From Patescibacteria group bacterium (lineage in GTDB: Bacteria; Patescibacteriota; Minisyncoccia; Phycocordibacterales; UBA9973): a stretch of 64,000 nucleotides of DNA. This document shows, in pieces, positions 48,022 through 55,071 of this stretch; position 1 is the stretch's first letter, and the number at the start of each line of letters is the position of its first letter. The stretch covers positions 20,530-84,529 of the forward strand of contig JBBTUV010000004.1 in the NCBI GenBank assembly GCA_038063535.1, read 5' to 3'. The notes beneath the pieces are model-generated. The model had not been told where the DNA came from, searched no databases, and worked only from the letters and a program-made list of their open reading frames with translations. Position numbers and translations under genes: made by a program.

Positions 48022-49434
48022 CTAAAATTCATCCAGTTCGCCGCCGGTTTTCGAAGGCGCGAATTCCGAGAGGGTGCTTTTTTCGAGGTTCAGGAATGTA
48101 GTCGTCTTCTCGTTGAAATAAAGTTCCACCTGCCCGACCGGCCCGTTTCGGTGTTTGGCGACGAGGAGCTCCGCGATGTTCGTCTTTTCCGATTCATCGC
48201 GCACCTTGTCTTCGCGGTGAATGAAGATAACCACGTCTGCGTCCTGCTCGATCGAGCCGGAATCTCGGAGGTCTGAAAGGCGGGGCTTGCCGCCGCGCGA
48301 CTCGATTGCGCGGGAGAGCTGAGAGAGGGCGAGGACCGGCACGTTCAATTCTTTGGCGAGGGCTTTCAAGGAACGGGAAATTTCTGTCACTTGGTTCACC
48401 ATCGAATCGTAATTTTTATTCGTGGTCATGAGCTGGAGGTAATCGACGACGATTAGGTCTAGCCCTTTTTCGACCTTAAGCCTGCGCGCAAGCGCTTTCA
48501 TTCGGACGATGGTATTGCCGGGTTGATCATCGATGAAGATCTTTGCCTTTGCGAGCTTGTCGAGCGAGTCACGGAGCTGGGAGAATTCCCGGTCAGAAGA
48601 AAGGCGGCCGGTGCGGAGGTTCCAGGCGTTCACTTTCGATTCGGCAGAAAGCATCCGGTCCACCAGCTGCTGCGAGGACATTTCCAGGGAGAAAACGAGC
48701 ACCGATTTGTCGTCGCGGGTGGCGGAGAGGCGCGCCATATCAAGTGCCAGCGTGGTTTTTCCCATCGAGGGGCGTGCCGCCAGTATAATCAGGTCGGCTT
48801 TCTGAAGACCGGAAAGAAGGGTATCGAGGTCGCGAAAGCCGGTGGAGAGCCCGCGAAGCATGCCTTTGTGTTCGTGCAGTTTCTCGAGGCGCTCCCAGGC
48901 TTCCGGCAGAGCGTCCTTCAAACTCGTGTATTTCTGATTTTTCGGGCTGGAGATGACGCTGAAGATTTTTTTCTCGGCGTGATCGAGAACTTCGGCGATA
49001 CTCTCATCACCTTCTTCGAAAGCAAGCTCGGAAACGTAATCGGCCGCCTCGATCAGGGAACGCAGCACGTATTTTTTCTGGACTATTTCCGCATAATGCC
49101 GGGCGTTGGTGGAAGAGGGAACTTCGTTCACAAGTTCGGTGAGGTACGAGTTTCCGCCGACCCGTTCGAGGTTCTTCTGCTCGGTGAGCTTGGCGGAGAG
49201 GGAAAGCATATCGATCGGCTCGCTTTGGGCGGACAGATCCAGCATCGCCCGGAAGATTATCTTATGTTTTTCGGCGTAAAAAGAGTCCGGTGTGAGCACG
49301 TCCTCTACCTCGTGCATCGCGTCTCTCCGAAGCATGATAGAGCCGAGCACGGCGCGCTCGGCTTCAAGATTTTGAGGCGGGATCCGGAGCTCGGTCCGGG
49401 AGGGAGTATTCCTCTTTGCCTTTTCCTTGGCCAT
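48022..49434 (-). CDS. dnaB: Replicative DNA helicase DnaB
   Basis: 470 aa. IPPQNLEAERAVLGS, the Walker A motif ARPSMGKTT, VVDYLQLM and SQLSRAIESR. TGcTAGAAT (minus strand; hexamer at 49446-49441) lies 6 nt upstream of the ATG. Confidence 0.9.
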   Translation of the reverse strand: MAKEKAKRNTPSRTELRIPPQNLEAERAVLGSIMLRRDAMHEVEDVLTPDSFYAEKHKIIFRAMLDLSAQSEPIDMLSLSAKLTEQKNLERVGGNSYLTELVNEVPSSTNARHYAEIVQKKYVLRSLIEAADYVSELAFEEGDESIAEVLDHAEKKIFSVISSPKNQKYTSLKDALPEAWERLEKLHEHKGMLRGLSTGFRDLDTLLSGLQKADLIILAARPSMGKTTLALDMARLSATRDDKSVLVFSLEMSSQQLVDRMLSAESKVNAWNLRTGRLSSDREFSQLRDSLDKLAKAKIFIDDQPGNTIVRMKALARRLKVEKGLDLIVVDYLQLMTTNKNYDSMVNQVTEISRSLKALAKELNVPVLALSQLSRAIESRGGKPRLSDLRDSGSIEQDADVVIFIHREDKVRDESEKTNIAELLVAKHRNGPVGQVELYFNEKTTTFLNLEKSTLSEFAPSKTGGELDEF

Positions 49435-49517
49435 GGAGCCATTCTAGCACAAACGTATCGGGGCGAAAGTTCCATTCTTGGAAAATATGTTATTAAAATG
49501 TTAATATAATAAAGACG

Positions 49518-50465
49518 ATGAAAAAAGTGTTTTTATCGGGGATTCAGCCCTCCGGCAAGCCGCATATCGGCAATTATTTCGGAATGATAAAGCAACTTCT
49601 TGAGGCACAGGGAGAGTATGATGTCTATGCCTTAGTCGTTGACTACCACGCGCTCAAGTCGATACAGAGCCTCGAGGAGATGAAACAAAACATCATTGAT
49701 GTCACGCTCGACTACCTGGCGCTTGGCCTCGACCCAAAAAGAGCGATATTTTTCAAGCAGAGCGACGTGTCCGAGCATACCGAGCTGGCCTGGATTTTCG
49801 ATACCATTACCACCATGCCGTACCTCATGCGGGCGCATGCTTTCAAAGACGCGGAAGCCAAAAATAAAGAAATAGATGTTGGCACCTTCAATTATCCTAT
49901 GCTTATGGCCGCGGATATCCTGCTCTATGCTCCCGACGTAGTGCCGGTCGGCGCTGATCAAAAACAGCATATCGAGATCGCCCGCGACACTGCTCTTAAG
50001 TTCAACAGAATCTATGGAGAGACTTTTAAAATTCCGGAGGCAATGATCCTCGAGAATGTGGCAGTAGTGCCTGGCACGGACGGGCGTAAGATGTCGAAGA
50101 GCTACGGCAACACGATTCCGCTATTTGCCGAGTATGAAGAGATAAAAAAATGCGTGATGAGCATCGTTACCGACTCAGGAGAGGGAATCCCGAAGAATGT
50201 TTTTGAGATTCATAAATTGTTCCGTACAGAAAGTGAATTAAAAAAGATTTATGAGAGCAAAGCAGGGAAGTATCAAGAACTAAAAGAGGCGCTCATAGAA
50301 GACATCGAAAAATTTGTCGCACCAATGCGGGAGAAGAGAAAAAAACTTGAGAAAGACATACCTGTAGCGTTAGCAGTACTAAAGGAAGGAGGCAAAAAGG
50401 CCAAAACCGTCGCTTCGGCCAAAATGGATGAAGTTCGCAAAAAAATCGGGGTGCACGTTTACTAA
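49518..50465 (+). CDS. trpS: Tryptophan--tRNA ligase
   Basis: 315 aa. The HIGH motif reads GKPHIGNY, GADQKQHIE is present, and the KMSKS motif reads KMSKS. Confidence 0.9.
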   Translation: MKKVFLSGIQPSGKPHIGNYFGMIKQLLEAQGEYDVYALVVDYHALKSIQSLEEMKQNIIDVTLDYLALGLDPKRAIFFKQSDVSEHTELAWIFDTITTMPYLMRAHAFKDAEAKNKEIDVGTFNYPMLMAADILLYAPDVVPVGADQKQHIEIARDTALKFNRIYGETFKIPEAMILENVAVVPGTDGRKMSKSYGNTIPLFAEYEEIKKCVMSIVTDSGEGIPKNVFEIHKLFRTESELKKIYESKAGKYQELKEALIEDIEKFVAPMREKRKKLEKDIPVALAVLKEGGKKAKTVASAKMDEVRKKIGVHVY

Positions 50466-50466
50466 T

Positions 50467-50757
50467 ATGAAAAGTAATTCGAAAGAATATAAAAAGGAAA
50501 TCGTGGAGGTCCTTTCCAGGGTAGGGGATAAGAGGGCCTTAATGCGGGATTTCATTGAGGACCTTTTAACTCCGCATGAATTTGAGAACATTGGTTTTCG
50601 CTGGCAAATAGTGAAGCGTTTAGCGAAAGGAGAAACTCATCAATCTATCGCAGAAGATCTGCGCCTTGGCGTAAGCACGGTGACTCGGGGTTCTCGAGAG
50701 ATGCGTAACAAGGAAGGGGGCTTTCATAAAGTTCTCCGGCTTCTCAAGCTGGAATAG
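50467..50757 (+). CDS. TrpR-related YerC/YecD-family DNA-binding protein
   Basis: FIEDLLTPHEFENIGFRWQIVKRLAKGETHQSIAEDLRLGVSTVTRGSREMRN matches the Trp-repressor-like HTH pattern. The start is set at ATG 50467, 1 nt after the trpS stop (the track ORF starts at 50428 inside trpS). Confidence 0.7.
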   Translation: MKSNSKEYKKEIVEVLSRVGDKRALMRDFIEDLLTPHEFENIGFRWQIVKRLAKGETHQSIAEDLRLGVSTVTRGSREMRNKEGGFHKVLRLLKLE

Positions 50758-50833
50758 GTAGAAAAAGAAAGGGCAAGGGAACAGCGAGGTTATCCACACC
50801 TTGCTTTTTCTGCCCTTGACTTCTCCCACTATT

Positions 50834-50855
50834 CCATACTAGTATACTAGTATGG
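50834..50855. promoter_or_regulatory. 22-bp perfect palindrome, trp-operator-like (ACTAGT-N2-ACTAGT)
   Basis: CCATACTAGTA|TACTAGTATGG is its own reverse complement. TTGACT lies at 50816-50821, 18 nt upstream of the embedded TAGTAT. Operator function is inferred. Confidence 0.5.
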
Positions 50856-51045
50856 CAAGGATAGAAAGAAACGGAACGGAAATAAGTTCTAAAGGGAAGT
50901 GGTGGAGCGCAAACACACTTGTTTTTGCGTCTATCTTTTGATTTCTCTTTATTTTCTAAACTAAAAAAGGAATCCAAAAATCGGCGCATGAGCGTCGATT
51001 TTGTTCTTTAACAGTATACATAAACCTAAACAAAAAGGAGAAGAC

Positions 51046-52482
51046 ATGAAAATAGTTTCAGTTGGTGGACGCATTAAGTCAGCAAGTGTGGGACTTGATG
51101 TGTTCGTGCCGGGGAATGATAATTTCCAGACGCAGATGAAGCAGGCGCGAGACAACCCTCCGATGCCAATCTTGAGCGCATTCTTTCCTTCAGACAAAAA
51201 CCGTATGAAGCAAATGATGCAGGGTATCGGCTTCTATCGCCCGATGCTCAAGACAGATCAAGGAATGGGCGGAAACTTTCTCCCGTTCTACGTAGACCCA
51301 GTTCTAAGGACAACAGACCTCTCGCCCCGGCAGATCGTCCGAGAAGAGGGTTTGATCATCCCTGAACTCTACCTGGAGCATGACCCAGGGACACTTCAAG
51401 AACTTCGGGAAACGTTCCAAAGATTAGATCTATGGAACGCTGACCGGATTCTCACTCCACTACTCACGCAGTCCCGCGAAGCGGAGAAAGGAAGAACACC
51501 GTTCTTCTTTATCCGCCCAGCCTTGCTTTCGTCACCAATTGTGTTTGGTGATGACATCGTGAAGAAGGTCAACGAAGTTGTAGGACAGTTGCTGAAAACA
51601 GTTGAAGACCATGCGACCGGAAAGGCGGGCTTCAACCAAACAGGCAACTATCTCTACTTTCTCGCGGACGTATTCGTGACGACTGAAGGCGAGGTGGTAG
51701 TCGAGAAACTCCACTTCCCCGATGTCGGATTCTTCATGAGTGAGTTGGAGCTCAAGGACTCGATCGCTTTCGAAACTCAAGGTGTAGTACGCCAGATTCT
51801 AGATCAAGTTTTCGGACGGGTTCTAGGTATGGTCAACTCTCGGGTGGTCTACATAATCACTCGAGATGAAGTACTACAACGAAACGAGGATGTTTTGGAA
51901 ATCTTCGAGATACGAAGCATCTCTCGTAAGTTCTGTGAGGCGGGCATTCAGGTAGAAGTACGAAGTGTCAGCCAGGCGGGAGAAATTCCTTCTGGAGCAA
52001 CCTGTCTGCTTCTCAACATAGCCGAACACGGCTCTGTACTCCTAGAGCGCTACGGACGCGGAGAACTCGTCTGCTATCCGAGCCCGTATCTCCAGTTGGC
52101 ATCACGTGAGTTGACGGGGCTGAGAGAAAGCGTCGTTCCCCGCCAGTTCATGAGCAAGTTCATCAGTCTCATCGACTGTAGTCCGAAAGAACATGAGGAT
52201 GCCGAGACCGTAGTGTCAAAAATCAACGTTATACTTTCAAAAGATGGAGTTGTCTCGGAGCTACTTCATGTTGAAGTTGACGGCGAAACTGTTCCTGTCC
52301 ACCGAAGGATTCACCACTCGTGGAAGCAGTTGGTGAAAAGAGTTCACAGACATAGGGGTGATAAACCTCTTGAAGATGTAGCTCTCAAAATCCGCGAGCT
52401 TCCACTCACGCATCGGAACAGTATGGTAACAAGTACCACTGGTCCAAGGCTCCATGTGTTCAGGTTTACGTTTACTGCTTAG
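51046..52482 (+). CDS. Orphan 478-aa hypothetical protein (possible ATP-grasp-like fold)
   Basis: The start is set at ATG 51046 (MKIVSVGG) with AAAGGAG 5 nt upstream. No TM was seen. The segment YLYFLADVFVTTEGEVVVEKLHFPDVGFF loosely resembles the xDxxxxxxGxxxxxExNxxP strand of ATP-grasp/GSP-synthetase-like enzymes. Codon usage is unlike neighbouring genes. Confidence 0.5.
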   Translation: MKIVSVGGRIKSASVGLDVFVPGNDNFQTQMKQARDNPPMPILSAFFPSDKNRMKQMMQGIGFYRPMLKTDQGMGGNFLPFYVDPVLRTTDLSPRQIVREEGLIIPELYLEHDPGTLQELRETFQRLDLWNADRILTPLLTQSREAEKGRTPFFFIRPALLSSPIVFGDDIVKKVNEVVGQLLKTVEDHATGKAGFNQTGNYLYFLADVFVTTEGEVVVEKLHFPDVGFFMSELELKDSIAFETQGVVRQILDQVFGRVLGMVNSRVVYIITRDEVLQRNEDVLEIFEIRSISRKFCEAGIQVEVRSVSQAGEIPSGATCLLLNIAEHGSVLLERYGRGELVCYPSPYLQLASRELTGLRESVVPRQFMSKFISLIDCSPKEHEDAETVVSKINVILSKDGVVSELLHVEVDGETVPVHRRIHHSWKQLVKRVHRHRGDKPLEDVALKIRELPLTHRNSMVTSTTGPRLHVFRFTFTA

Positions 52483-52525
52483 TCTCCGATTAAATTATGG
52501 AGACAGAAAAGGAGGTATCAAGGAC

Positions 52526-52560
52526 GGGGGCTCGTTCATTGCAACAGCCCCCAACCTTTT
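52526..52560 (+). terminator. Intrinsic terminator after the 478-aa gene
   Basis: GGGGGCT (52526-52532) pairs with AGCCCCC (52546-52552) across a 13-nt loop, followed by AACCTTTTTA. Confidence 0.5.
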
Positions 52561-52599
52561 TATGTTAAAATTAACAATGAGTAAATTTAAATATAAAAA

Positions 52600-53010
52600 A
52601 TGAAAAATCTTGCGGAAATAAAAAAAGAAAACATGTGGCGCGCAGTAATGTCTCAAATTTACAAAGCAAAAAAGGAAATTTTAGCCACTATGGATATAGC
52701 TGAAGAGCTAAAAAATCCTTTACCTAAAAAATATTTTTCTTTATTATATAAAAAACACAAAGAAGGTATTAAAATTAAACGAGTAATTTTTGGTTCCACA
52801 AAACAATATAAACATTTATTAAAAGAAGCTGTAGATAAGAATTTGTTTTTTATAGGCAAACATACAAAATCAACAAATTATAAAAGGATGATTCTTATTG
52901 ACCGAAGCAAACTTTTTTTCTCCAGGGGGCATGGAGGTAAAAAAAAGTTTTATTTCACAACTGATGAGATCTATCTGAAGGAATATCTGGATTATTTTAA
53001 TGAGATATAG
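52600..53010 (+). CDS. Hypothetical 136-aa Lys-rich protein, very AT-rich gene
   Basis: This is the only long ORF in this stretch. There is a weak resemblance to TrmB C-terminal/PLD-like domains (KRMILIDRSKLFF). No HTH was seen. Confidence 0.4.
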   Translation: MKNLAEIKKENMWRAVMSQIYKAKKEILATMDIAEELKNPLPKKYFSLLYKKHKEGIKIKRVIFGSTKQYKHLLKEAVDKNLFFIGKHTKSTNYKRMILIDRSKLFFSRGHGGKKKFYFTTDEIYLKEYLDYFNEI

Positions 53011-53061
53011 AGTTTTCCGCAGGTGCTTGTCAAAAAATGAAATAACTGATACAGTTAAAGA

Positions 53062-53612
53062 GTGAGTAAAAGTACACAGCCGAAGAATGTTATCCTTGCC
53101 AGCCTTTAATCTAGAAGGCTGATCTTTGCGCTGTAAAAATCTCTCAACACTTACAACCCAAACACCAGCCTTCTAAACCTAGAGGCTGGTGTTCTCGTTT
53201 ACGAGAATAGTTGTTCTTCCCAAGCTCCGAAAGAGAGACAATAATGCCCAAGTCGTCCAGTTTGGAAGAGTGGTTCGTAGGGGCAATCAGATCGGGGAGA
53301 GACTTTCTGACTGTGCCTCCCCACATCACGGAACTTCCGTGCGGGCATCGACGAGCCCGCACTGATAGACCCTTCGAATTACGAAGGATACTGTTCCAGC
53401 TGGTTTGGGCCCACCACAACAGAGAACACCAGGGTCAGGGTTGTTTCTTGCCTCTGTCTTCAATTCTTCGGGAGAGCAATCTCCCGGAGAGAACAGACCA
53501 GCAGGAACGACCCCGTTACATGGCCGACGTTGGACGACCACGCTGAGTTCCGCCAGTGCAAGCAGTATGCGGAACACGGGGGGCTGTCGCGCGCGACAGC
53601 CCCCCTATTATT
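53062..53612 (+). ncRNA. Candidate structured non-coding RNA of unknown class
   Basis: There is no credible CDS here. The sequence is GC-rich with at least 8 local hairpins, including an 11-bp GCAA-tetraloop helix (53465-53490). A long-range helix is possible between 53252-53260 and 53530-53538. A promoter-like TTGTCA-N17-TGaTACAGT lies at 53027-53055. The stretch ends at the 53578-53605 terminator. The 5' end is uncertain; an alternative start is near 53252. Confidence 0.4.
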
Positions 53613-53619
53613 TTTTATT
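53578..53619 (+). terminator. Strong intrinsic terminator
   Basis: GGGGGGCTGTCGCG/CGCGACAGCCCCCC is a perfect 28-nt inverted repeat at 53578-53605, followed by TATTATTTTTTATT. The T-run is on the plus strand only. Confidence 0.75.
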
Positions 53620-53649
53620 CCGCTTTTTTTATGCTAAAATACTTTTACC

Positions 53650-55071
53650 GTGAAAAAAAGGATTTATATAAAAGATTTGAAAGACAATGTCGGCAAAGAA
53701 ATCACCATCGCCGGGTGGGTGGATGTCAGGCGCGATCAGGGCAAAATGGTATTTTTCGATATGCGGGATATGACGGGTAAGGTGCAGTGTGTGGCACTAC
53801 CAAGCCATGCCGAAGTAATTGAAACGGCGAAGGAGATAAGGCCGGAGTGGGTTTTGAAGATCATCGGGAAGGTAAACAAACGGCCGGAGAAAAATGTAAA
53901 CAAAGAAGTGCTAAATGGCGACATTGAACTTGAGATTACCAGCATCGAAGTTTTAAATAAATCTGAAACGCCGCCGTTTCCGATTGATGCTGACACTCGC
54001 GAAGTGGATGAAGATTTGCGTCTGAAGTACAGATATCTTGATCTAAGGAGCGACAGGATGCAGAAAAATGTCCGCATGCGCGACAAGGTTATTTCTTTTT
54101 TCCGCGACCACATGCACCAGAACGGCTTTGTCGAGATAGAAACCCCGATACTTATGCGCGGTACGCCTGAAGGCGCGCGCGAGTACGTAGTGCCCTCGAG
54201 GGTGTGGCAGGGAAAGTTCTATGCTCTGCCGCAATCGCCCCAGCAGTTCAAGCAGCTCTCGATGGTTGCCGGCTTTGAAAAATATTTCCAGATTGCTCGC
54301 TGCATGCGCGATGAGGACACAAGAGGGGACAGGCAGCCGGAATTCACCCAGCTCGACTATGAGATGTCATTCGTCGAGCGCGATGAGGTCCTGGAATACA
54401 CTGAAGGTATGTTCATTAAATTGATTGAAAAAGTTTATCCGGAAAAGAAAATTTCACAAATTCCGTTCCCGCGGCTCACTCACGCTGAATCAATGGAAAA
54501 ATACGGTTCGGACAAGCCGGACTTGCGTAAAGATAAAAACAATCCCGACGAGCTTGCATTTCTCTGGGTTGTTGATTTCCCGATGTTTGAAAAGACTGAT
54601 GAGGGAGACCCCGCAACGCAGGCTAACGGGGCAAGATTACAAGCGGTGCACCACCCTTTCTGCTCGATTCACCCGGAGGACAAGGAGAAATTCATGAAAG
54701 GCAAGGACATTTTCTCTATCCGCGCGAATGCTTATGACTTGGTCTTAAACGGCTACGAACTTTCTTCCGGCTCGATCCGCATCCACGACAGCGCCGAGCA
54801 AAAGAGGGTTTTTGATTTGCTGGAAATCAGCGAAGAAACTCAAGCAGCGAAATTCGGCCACATGCTCGAGGCTTTCAAATACGGCGCGCCGCCGCATGGC
54901 GGTTTTGCGCCCGGCATCGACCGCATTGTCATGATTCTTCAAAATGAACCGAATATCCGCGAAGTGATTCCTTTTGCCAAAACCGGCGAAGGCAAGGACC
55001 TCCTCATGGGCTCGCCGGCTGAAATTTCCGATAAGCAATTGAAAGAGTTGGGAATAAAATTAGGCAAATGA
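53650..55071 (+). CDS. aspS: Aspartate--tRNA ligase lacking the GAD insertion domain
   Basis: 473 aa with a GTG start. An OB-fold N-domain, the motif 2 region FYALPQSPQQFKQL...FQIARCMRDEDTRGDRQPEFTQLD, and motif 3 GGFAPGIDR. DKPDLRKDKNNPDELAFLWVVDFPMFE joins directly where bacterial enzymes carry about 130 aa. TGcTAAAAT lies at 53632-53640. Confidence 0.9.
   Translation: MKKRIYIKDLKDNVGKEITIAGWVDVRRDQGKMVFFDMRDMTGKVQCVALPSHAEVIETAKEIRPEWVLKIIGKVNKRPEKNVNKEVLNGDIELEITSIEVLNKSETPPFPIDADTREVDEDLRLKYRYLDLRSDRMQKNVRMRDKVISFFRDHMHQNGFVEIETPILMRGTPEGAREYVVPSRVWQGKFYALPQSPQQFKQLSMVAGFEKYFQIARCMRDEDTRGDRQPEFTQLDYEMSFVERDEVLEYTEGMFIKLIEKVYPEKKISQIPFPRLTHAESMEKYGSDKPDLRKDKNNPDELAFLWVVDFPMFEKTDEGDPATQANGARLQAVHHPFCSIHPEDKEKFMKGKDIFSIRANAYDLVLNGYELSSGSIRIHDSAEQKRVFDLLEISEETQAAKFGHMLEAFKYGAPPHGGFAPGIDRIVMILQNEPNIREVIPFAKTGEGKDLLMGSPAEISDKQLKELGIKLGK

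Follow-up and report, generated by a model that had tools for sequence, protein, structure and literature searches.

Introduction

Transcription of the Escherichia coli trpEDCBA region is controlled both by a TrpR-family repressor and by ribosome-mediated attenuation. Here, we describe a locus with putative counterparts of both controls in a 64,000-nucleotide stretch of DNA (contig JBBTUV010000004.1, positions 20,530 to 84,529; hereafter, the window) from a Patescibacteria metagenome-assembled genome recovered from Hainich groundwater. At this locus, trpS and a gene for a TrpR-like protein are followed by a palindrome and by two genes that we call X and Y. An earlier annotation of the same stretch (the original prediction) had noted the likeness of the palindrome to the E. 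coli TrpR operator. We consider it highly probable that this operator, together with a promoter, a leaderless leader-peptide gene, and an attenuator, makes up a two-level, E. coli-style tryptophan control region. Positions below are those of the window, and all features lie on the + strand except the operator, to which no strand is assigned. To our knowledge, no cis-regulatory circuit has been described for Patescibacteria (candidate phyla radiation, CPR), a group of uncultivated, reduced bacteria.

Like the E. coli trp operator, the palindrome contains ACTAGT units 8 bp apart that overlap a −10 element. The leader downstream of it resembles E. coli trpL in its two adjacent Trp codons, in RNA segments that can form 1:2, 2:3, and 3:4 hairpins, and in a stop codon so placed that a terminating ribosome would mask segment 2. 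There are several differences. Unlike in E. coli, a leaderless transcript is predicted for Patescibacteria, its start codon lying within the operator; what stays invariant is a palindrome on one CTAG, present in one to three copies per site; the Trp codons abut segment 1, while the stop codon lies inside segment 2; the repressor gene adjoins the module and is probably co-transcribed with trpS; and something other than a trp biosynthesis gene is the cargo in this genome. The leader has no sequence or Rfam likeness to the gamma-proteobacterial Trp leader.

Leaderless attenuators have precedents. The trpL transcript of Sinorhizobium meliloti is leaderless, the 5' end of the attenuator RNA (rnTrpL) being the ATG of trpL (PMC7298713). 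That system is also a ribosome-mediated Trp attenuator, located upstream of trpE(G), but its promoter is not repressed by TrpR (PMC7298713), whereas the leaderless start predicted here lies within an operator. For mycobacteria, one preprint describes leaderless polycysteine short open reading frames (ORFs) that act as attenuators (bioRxiv 10.1101/834739). The arrangement is similar in that a leaderless ORF rich in one amino acid senses its supply and controls the downstream operon; it differs in the amino acid and the phylum. At the Patescibacteria locus, the terminator and antiterminator covary, and a repressor operator is present.

Two further systems are relevant to the repressor. In Chlamydia trachomatis, TrpR is the Trp-dependent repressor (PMC7755916). 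The chlamydial trpRBA order (trpR, intergenic regulatory region, trpBA), found in another reduced, host-dependent bacterium, is matched by several relatives of the window in which trpR, the module, and trpBA follow one another. In Chlamydia, trpR is preceded by the main operator and promoter, and the iron repressor YtgR controls the intergenic region; the Patescibacteria intergenic region, in contrast, holds the putative TrpR operator, promoter, and leader-peptide attenuator. The second system is HisR (YerC/YecD), a histidine repressor whose effector is histidine, whose targets are his genes, and whose operator is cacTTTAnnnnnnTAAAgtg (PMC9413887). This operator has been validated in vitro, and YerC is HisR (PMC9413887), so the original statement that no operator had been defined for the YerC/YecD subfamily does not stand. 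Like the repressor studied here, HisR proteins belong to PF01371 and are shorter than 100 amino acids (aa); they have 20-bp palindromic operators and are often autoregulated (PMC9413887). They differ in operator consensus, and the window protein scores higher on the TrpR than on the yecD_yerC model. The literature that we searched contained no description of TrpR operators or of trp attenuation in CPR/Patescibacteria, which is an absence of matches and not proof of novelty.

Results

A palindrome downstream of a trpS-trpR gene pair

The first gene of the pair, trpS (tryptophan--tRNA ligase, 49518-50465), was identified by Pfam tRNA-synt_1b (2e-61) and by a score of 278 bits on TIGR00233 (cutoff 176.75). 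The TrpR-family repressor gene, which encodes 96 aa, occupies 50467-50757, leaving the 1-nt gap that had been reported (50465 versus 50467). In most relatives, trpS is likewise found upstream of trpR. The reported distance of 76 nt from the stop codon of the 96-aa gene (50755-50757) to the palindrome was also borne out, as was the geometry of the palindrome itself: the 22-bp perfect palindrome CCATACTAGTATACTAGTATGG at 50834-50855 has CTAG cores at 50839-50842 and 50847-50850, 8 bp apart, and consists of two overlapping units, CATACTAGTATA and TATACTAGTATG.

Within the window, a pattern search for ACTAGT-N2-ACTAGT returned a single occurrence, which is this palindrome; it ranks second in length among the perfect palindromes of the window, and a weight matrix built on operator sites of relatives found no further site in the 64 kb. 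Palindromes of at least 22 bp arose in 3 of 200 block shuffles of the window. A chance origin is unlikely, and we regard conservation in relatives, rather than statistics within the window, as the decisive evidence on this point.

The 96-aa protein and its relationship to TrpR

The 96-aa protein matched Pfam PF01371 (Trp_repressor) with 55.4 bits (cutoff 27) over positions 5-86 of the 88-position profile. Its best-scoring NCBIfam model was TIGR01321, the trp operon repressor equivalog (43.2 bits); on TIGR02531 (yecD_yerC), it scored only 23.1 bits, below the cutoff of 42.2. A profile built from an alignment of 36 members of the repressor family was compared with solved structures, and retrieved E. 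coli TrpR at E = 3e-8 and the HisR/YerC-type structures 3g1c, 3frw, and 3kor at 2e-4 to 8e-3. The NCBIfam scores and the structural matches thus favor TrpR over the YerC/YecD type to which the protein had originally been assigned. A HisR-type context was not seen either: the site is CATACTAGTATACTAGTATG rather than cacTTTAnnnnnnTAAAgtg, and no his genes were found beside trpS, the trp genes, or X-Y. By these comparisons, the 96-aa protein appears to be a divergent, Patescibacteria-specific branch of TrpR.

The family is highly conserved within Patescibacteria. Its profile in the recognition helix reads G-V-(A/S)-T-V-T-R-G-S, against G-I-A-T-I-T-R-G-S in E. coli, and the helix of the window protein is GVSTVTRGS. 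The tryptophan pocket of E. coli TrpR includes T44, R54, R84, G85, and S88; the counterparts of T44/P45, R54, and R84/G85 in the 36-member alignment, namely LTP, the R of RW, and RG, do not vary. DNA is contacted in E. coli TrpR by R69, I79, A80, T81, T83, and R84 (PMC9413887), and five of these six residues were counted as kept in the family profile alignment. Taken singly, T81, T83, and R84 are kept, I79 is replaced by V, R69 falls inside a 1-residue indel, and the A80 position is occupied by S in the window protein and by A in most relatives. The genomic context, with trp genes and leaders containing tandem Trp codons (WW), supports tryptophan as the putative corepressor.

Conservation of the putative operator and its link to the repressor gene

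A protein-anchored scan with one genome per species yielded 62 loci, 45 of them from Patescibacteria. In ~35 of 44 genome loci, an exact match to TACTAG[C/T]AT[A/G]CTAGTA was located 40-130 bp downstream of the trpR-like gene. The remaining loci contained the motif with one or two changes, usually with CTAT as the first core; such an altered form was also present in Doudnabacteria, with repressors 45-49% identical. The core of the palindrome was thus present next to the TrpR-like gene in essentially all Patescibacteria relatives examined. The invariant unit is a 12-bp palindrome, [C/T][A/G]TACTAGTA[T/C][G/A], centered on a single CTAG (50847-50850 in the window), and one to three such units with an 8-bp period make up a site. 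The operator of locus L029 is a perfect 28-bp palindrome, and that of L012 has three CTAGs. The 36 sites from relatives that were used for the weight matrix show little or no variation at the positions ATACTAGTATG. All 36 have an unchanged ATG side of the palindrome, and 32 of 36 have the mirror-image C, an asymmetry that is expected if the ATG bears a second constraint.

The link between motif and repressor was evaluated in an independent set of 44 loci fetched via protein X, blind to both TrpR and the motif. The TACTAGTA core was found in 18 of 19 loci with a TrpR-like protein and in 1 of 25 loci without one (Fisher p = 3e-10), and in those 18 loci the core adjoins trpR. Tandem TrpR dimers of E. 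coli use an 8-bp operator periodicity, and CTAG cores 8 bp apart would permit tandem dimers here as well. The palindrome agrees with the gamma-proteobacterial TrpR consensus TGTAcTnGTnnACnAgTACA (PMC9413887) at 12 of 16 specified positions, the mismatches being the two outermost positions on each side. Both the spacing of the cores and this agreement support a TrpR-type operator, as had been proposed. We conclude that the adjoining TrpR-family repressor very likely binds the palindrome.

Additional copies of the operator were observed in relatives. An extra copy lies just upstream of trpR in L008, L013, L017, L018, L020, L021, L024, L026, L030, L040, L048, L049, L052, L070, and L074, in many relatives between trpS and trpR, which implies autoregulation of trpR in those genomes. 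In L018, L048, L049, and L052, which include Doudnabacteria, the operator ATG is the start codon of trpR itself, so that trpR would there be both leaderless and autoregulated. The window has no operator copy upstream of trpR, because trpR begins 1 nt after trpS. At position 7849 of L070, an extra operator core, CATACTAGTATG, is situated between aspS and flavokinase-like/EamA-transporter genes, a hint that the regulon may include a transporter; the counterparts of these genes in the window overlap aspS, and the weight matrix found no site there. Finally, in L015 (4403-5135) and L035 (4324-5066), an Asp/Glu/hydantoin-racemase gene begins at the operator ATG in place of the leader peptide, and in L035 the racemase gene is followed by a second operator and a WW leader.

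A predicted promoter and leaderless start within the operator

A promoter scan picked the same pair of hexamers as the original prediction, a −35 element TTGACT (50816-50821) and, after an 18-nt spacer, a −10 element TAGTAT (50840-50845) within the operator. In nearly all relatives (~35 species), TTGCTT or TTGACT begins 35 nt upstream of the leader ATG (36 nt in the window), with a spacer of 17 or 18 nt. In relatives, the −10 element occupies −12 to −7 relative to the ATG in every case and reads TAGCAT in 23 loci, TATCAT in 5, and TAGTAT in 3. The 6 nt between the end of the −10 element and the A of the ATG are the canonical distance to a start site, from which we predict a leaderless transcript with +1 at this A (50852). 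The predicted −10 and +1 thus both fall within the operator (50834-50855), and the claim that operator and promoter overlap is strengthened by the conservation of the −35 element and its spacing in ~35 species. The TATACT at the dyad center, which had also been put forward as a −10, and an upstream TATACT of relatives were rejected, because their spacers to the conserved −35 would be ~12 or 20 nt, a geometry incompatible with that element.

Another reading of the palindrome is that it is an RNA hairpin ending or stabilizing the trpS-trpR transcript, or else a chance or restriction-site-like palindrome. It does follow the trpR stop by 76 nt, could form a stem of 9 bp capped by a 4-nt loop, and is of a length that the block shuffles occasionally reached. 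However, no T-tract follows it on either strand, its sequence and not merely its pairing is conserved down to the invariant ATG, the conserved −35 precedes it at a fixed spacing, and the same element is found upstream of trpR, a place in which a terminator would serve no purpose. We therefore consider this explanation extremely unlikely.

Upstream of the promoter, the terminator scan detected a weak terminator-like hairpin after trpR (50783-50805; 8 pairs, then TTTTCTG), which is not conserved among relatives. The loop of this hairpin contains a perfect DnaA-box consensus, TTATCCACA, at 50790-50798 (approximately −62 to −54 of the predicted promoter), with no second perfect copy anywhere in the window. 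Doudnabacteria lack this box; of 32 Nomurabacteria-type loci, 28 have it, starting 61-63 nt ahead of the leader ATG. Such a placement would fit an upstream activator, or DnaA in the role of a transcription factor. DnaA boxes with one mismatch are not enriched in the window (11 observed versus 8.2 expected), and there is no sign of an origin. A TTTTCCACA-like box also precedes other promoter-like sites, at 53012-53020 in the window and at ~4540 in L032.

The strict placement of the TTATCCACA box beside the promoter in Nomurabacteria-type loci means that at least one further factor may act there, and it could be argued that some other protein, such as another helix-turn-helix regulator or DnaA-associated machinery, binds the palindrome, with the TrpR-like gene a syntenic bystander. 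Against this, the core follows trpR in loci chosen independently of both (18/19 versus 1/25), is also found upstream of trpR itself in many genomes, and persists in Doudnabacteria, which lack the DnaA-like box; moreover, its CTAG cores are arranged as in E. coli TrpR operators (CTAG-N4-CTAG), and the repressor has kept its recognition helix. Binding by a protein other than the TrpR-like repressor is thus very unlikely.

A putative leader peptide with tandem Trp codons

A trpL-like leader ORF of 29 codons, encoding MARIERNGTEISSKGKWWSANTLVFASIF, starts at the operator ATG and extends over 50852-50941, with tandem TGG TGG at 50900-50905 and a TGA stop at 50939-50941. Leader ORFs were present in 39 of the 45 Patescibacteria loci, and 36 of the 39 begin at the operator's own ATG. 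In-frame Trp codons occur in tandem in 32 of them and singly in 7. The ORFs range from 14 to 51 codons and their middle part is unconserved, yet the Trp codons remain in the reading frame set by the ATG; over all leaders, 5.8% of the residues are Trp. The C-terminal parts of the peptides are alike across loci (...GAE..AFALFC). This likeness is due to the underlying RNA hairpin arms, which covary; in L022, the hairpin is kept with a wholly different sequence.

A probable RNA switch with mutually exclusive helices

The leader RNA of the window folds at −48.9 kcal/mol (z = −4.9) and contains the elements of an attenuator. Hairpin 1:2 (50907-50930), which may serve as an anti-antiterminator or pause hairpin, has its 5' arm directly after the Trp codons. 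Segment 2 (CTTTTGCGCC...GATTTCTT, 50926-50947) can pair with segment 1 or segment 3, and includes the leader stop codon, which is inside segment 2 in all loci. Segment 3 (AAGGAATCC...GGCGCA, 50967-50988) can be either the 3' half of the antiterminator, in which segment 2 pairs with AAGGAATC...GGCGCA, or the 5' arm of the terminator. The intrinsic terminator 3:4 (AAAATCGGCGCATGAGCGTCGATTTT + GTTCTTT, 50977-51009) was detected by the terminator scan with 11 pairs; its stem (50977-51002; −13.8 kcal/mol), ~35 nt further on, is followed by a T-tract to 51009. An equivalent terminator was found in 39 of 39 leader loci.

To evaluate these helices, a MAFFT alignment of 32 leaders from 32 species was scored for pairing and covariation against slid partners and 500 shuffles. 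In hairpin 1:2 (columns 16-20 and 30-33 with 60-68), ~87% of cells are paired, and 3 pairs have double changes. The terminator conformer is 87.9% paired, compared to 38-55% with slid partners; it has 36 double-change cells, and its covariation score was reached in 0 of 500 shuffles. In the terminator 3:4, 5 of 9 pairs have double changes. The antiterminator 2:3 (columns 63-85 with 151-172) is 90.7% paired, compared to 38-52% with slid partners, 10 of its pairs have compensatory changes, and none of the 500 shuffles reached any of the measures. Column 68 covaries with columns 16 and 167, and column 167 with columns 68 and 184; such dual covariation is the signature expected of mutually exclusive helices. 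In the window, 17 of the 19 alignment-defined antiterminator pairs form.

Formation of the antiterminator was also modeled by masking a ribosome footprint on the Trp codons and cutting the RNA before segment 4. In this stall test, the 5' arm of the terminator paired with segment 2 in 38 of 39 loci, with a median of 80% of arm nucleotides paired; the median stabilization was −10.4 kcal/mol, and z was below −2 versus shuffles in 24 of 39 loci. A simpler scheme, in which hairpin 1 alone is the terminator (a "shielding" attenuator), was rejected: since the leader ORF traverses this hairpin, a translating ribosome would open the hairpin under either condition. The switch logic is resolved by the second, canonical terminator together with the 2:3 helix, which covaries.

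Could the short ORF or its RNA act mainly in trans, as a micropeptide and/or small RNA, instead of serving solely as a cis attenuator of X-Y? The S. meliloti peTrpL/rnTrpL pair provides a precedent (PMC6614838, PMC7298713), and the promoter-to-terminator unit is self-contained (~160 nt). In addition, the downstream cargo is highly variable, and some loci have no + strand ORF of at least 80 aa starting within 450 nt of the terminator. On the other hand, the peptide is poorly conserved except for its W codons, the C-terminal likeness being explained by the covarying hairpin arms, and the stop codon is always within segment 2, as a cis mechanism demands. A trans-acting role would be compatible with cis attenuation, not exclusive of it; as the principal function, it appears quite unlikely.

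Genes downstream of the attenuator

The identities of the genes behind the terminator in relatives were assigned by Pfam. They are TrpB and TrpA in 6 loci, TrpB2 in 2, and TrpE and TrpG in 4; overall, trp biosynthesis genes are under the module in at least 12 of 39 relatives. A phosphoribosyl pyrophosphate synthase gene is located within ~1 kb of the terminator in 3 loci, and a prephenate dehydratase gene in 1. In the 64-kb window, tblastn found no trpA, trpB, or trpE, in agreement with the reported absence of trp biosynthesis genes. The position of the module ahead of trpBA, trpB2, and trpEG in relatives indicates that the repressor is a genuine trp regulator and that the cargo has been swapped in this genome.

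In the window, the cargo consists of X and Y. X (51046-52482, 478 aa) starts 37 nt after the terminator, behind a good Shine-Dalgarno sequence, and represents a Patescibacteria-specific family with a LanB-glutamylation-domain/ATP-grasp-like fold. It had been described as an orphan, but ~70 full-length homologues with 32-88% identity were found; the few with a taxon name are from Patescibacteria, and none has a Pfam domain. Among solved structures, its fold is nearest to the aminoacyl-tRNA-dependent glutamylation domains of LanB dehydratases and to ATP-grasp acid-amine ligases. Its partner Y (52600-53010, 136 aa) has a PLD-like fold in the predicted structure available from database homologues (predicted local distance difference test score of 91), and resembles FAM83, Nuc, and the TrmB C-domain; an HxK motif is not among the invariant columns of Y. 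Neither X nor Y has a match in Pfam or NCBIfam. The Trp content of both is low (2 W in 478 residues of X, 1 W in 136 of Y).

The order trpS-trpR-operator-leader-X-Y is found in close relatives (L070, L075-L079, L104, and L112). On a 283-kb contig (L074), the order is operator-trpR-WW leader-terminator-X-Y, with an X homologue of 34% identity. In L084, L098, and L110, X-Y follows WWW or WW leaders and no trpR is visible; the pair lies beside trpS in L073, L090, and L110, and between shikimate and prephenate dehydrogenase genes in L071. The original suggestion that the operator controls the 478-aa gene is supported. Given their place behind TrpR and WW-leader control, X and Y are predicted to be switched on by tryptophan starvation. 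We offer, tentatively and with somewhat less than even confidence, the view that X-Y is an unrecognized tryptophan-starvation response, or a tryptophan/tRNA-Trp handling system, of Patescibacteria. At this locus, the genomes with X-Y under the module have no trp biosynthesis genes, and across several distant lineages X-Y is associated with trpR, trpS, WW/WWW leaders, or shikimate and prephenate genes.

The trp leader seems to mark a "cargo slot", which also holds other unannotated families and would point to unknown tryptophan-related biochemistry. These include a ~366-aa family with an R.D....G..K.AE.DP motif (L011, L030, L039, and L048), a 223-317-aa family with a CPDY motif (L023, L033, and L045), a DUF6875 protein, and an AstE/AspA-like protein (L025; L037). 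A relationship between X and the ATP-grasp-looking ~366-aa family was considered and dropped, as profile comparison revealed none.

Several features were noted around Y. The X-Y intergenic region (52517-52595) contains a terminator-like hairpin, GGGGGCT...AGCCCCC, at 52526-52553, followed by a T-run; a sub-threshold Rfam match to caiA in this region (27.8 bits versus a gathering score of 55.5, E = 0.14) is probably meaningless. Downstream of Y, the region 53010-53622 begins with a promoter-like arrangement, GTTTTCCGCA-ggtg-cTTGTCA-17-TACAGT, which is followed by a GC-rich stretch of ~565 nt that folds at −227.9 kcal/mol (z = −8.9), far better than shuffles. The stretch ends just upstream of aspS in the longest perfect palindrome of the window (28 bp, 53578-53605) and a T-tract. 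No Rfam match was found in 53010-53622, a tRNA/tmRNA scan of 52900-53750 was empty, and a 100-aa ORF inside the stretch had no Pfam match; text similar to this ORF recurs in L023, L027, and L037. The GC-rich stretch is a candidate for a large structured RNA or an unusual small gene.

Discussion

Comparison across relatives gives the parts of the module, their order, and their covariation, from which we infer its dynamics as follows. When free Trp is plentiful, the Trp-loaded repressor, bound to the CTAG cores, would block RNA polymerase at the −10 and +1 of a σ70-type promoter. Transcripts that escape would be subject to attenuation. When charged tRNA-Trp is scarce, the ribosome would stall on WW and cover segment 1, allowing 2:3 to form and transcription to read through into the downstream genes. 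When Trp-tRNA is ample, the ribosome would reach the stop codon in segment 2 and mask it, so that 3:4 forms and transcription terminates at ~51009. If translation is absent, 1:2 and 3:4 would both form, and transcription would end. Hairpin 1:2 and the T-rich tract that follows it may constitute a pause that synchronizes the ribosome with the polymerase, as in E. coli. The attenuation level of this circuit is strongly supported by the comparative sequence data; the repression level we infer from the operator, its position, and its link to the repressor gene.

Several observations weigh against this interpretation. In the stall test, the 2:3 gain for the window copy was only −7.0 kcal/mol (z = −1.3), and in the minimum-energy fold of the whole leader with a stalled ribosome, which contains the antiterminator in some loci, the window keeps the terminator. 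It is because the whole-leader minimum does not flip in the window that the co-transcriptional version of the test, with segment 4 not yet made, was used; switching in the window must be kinetic, or else the window copy is weaker than those of relatives. An Rfam scan of 49000-54000 at E <= 1 returned no riboswitch, T-box, or Trp_leader (RF00513, the gamma-proteobacterial trp operon leader), and, besides the sub-threshold caiA match, gave only a spurious miRNA match; the likeness to the gamma-proteobacterial leader is one of mechanism, not of sequence family. The 96-aa protein does not reach the TIGR01321 cutoff of 67.25, and has E at the position of the tryptophan-pocket residue S88. The −10 element of the window, TAGTAT, agrees with TATAAT at 4 of 6 positions. 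Finally, the circuit as proposed does not account for the conserved DnaA-box-like element that precedes the −35.

What appears to be new here is the leaderless fusion of operator, +1, and start codon, placed upon a known trp control logic. A complete circuit, comprising repressor, operator, promoter, leaderless leader, and RNA switch, could be assembled from sequence alone, and is conserved across the classes of the phylum. The repression-plus-attenuation logic of E. coli would thus extend well beyond Proteobacteria, to a compact version that merges operator, start site, and start codon. Promoter and start-site prediction in CPR genomes could benefit from the −35, −10, and +1 positions predicted here. 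Any gene behind the module is predicted to be tryptophan-responsive, which would provide a physiological context for X-Y and for the other unannotated families of Patescibacteria found in this position.

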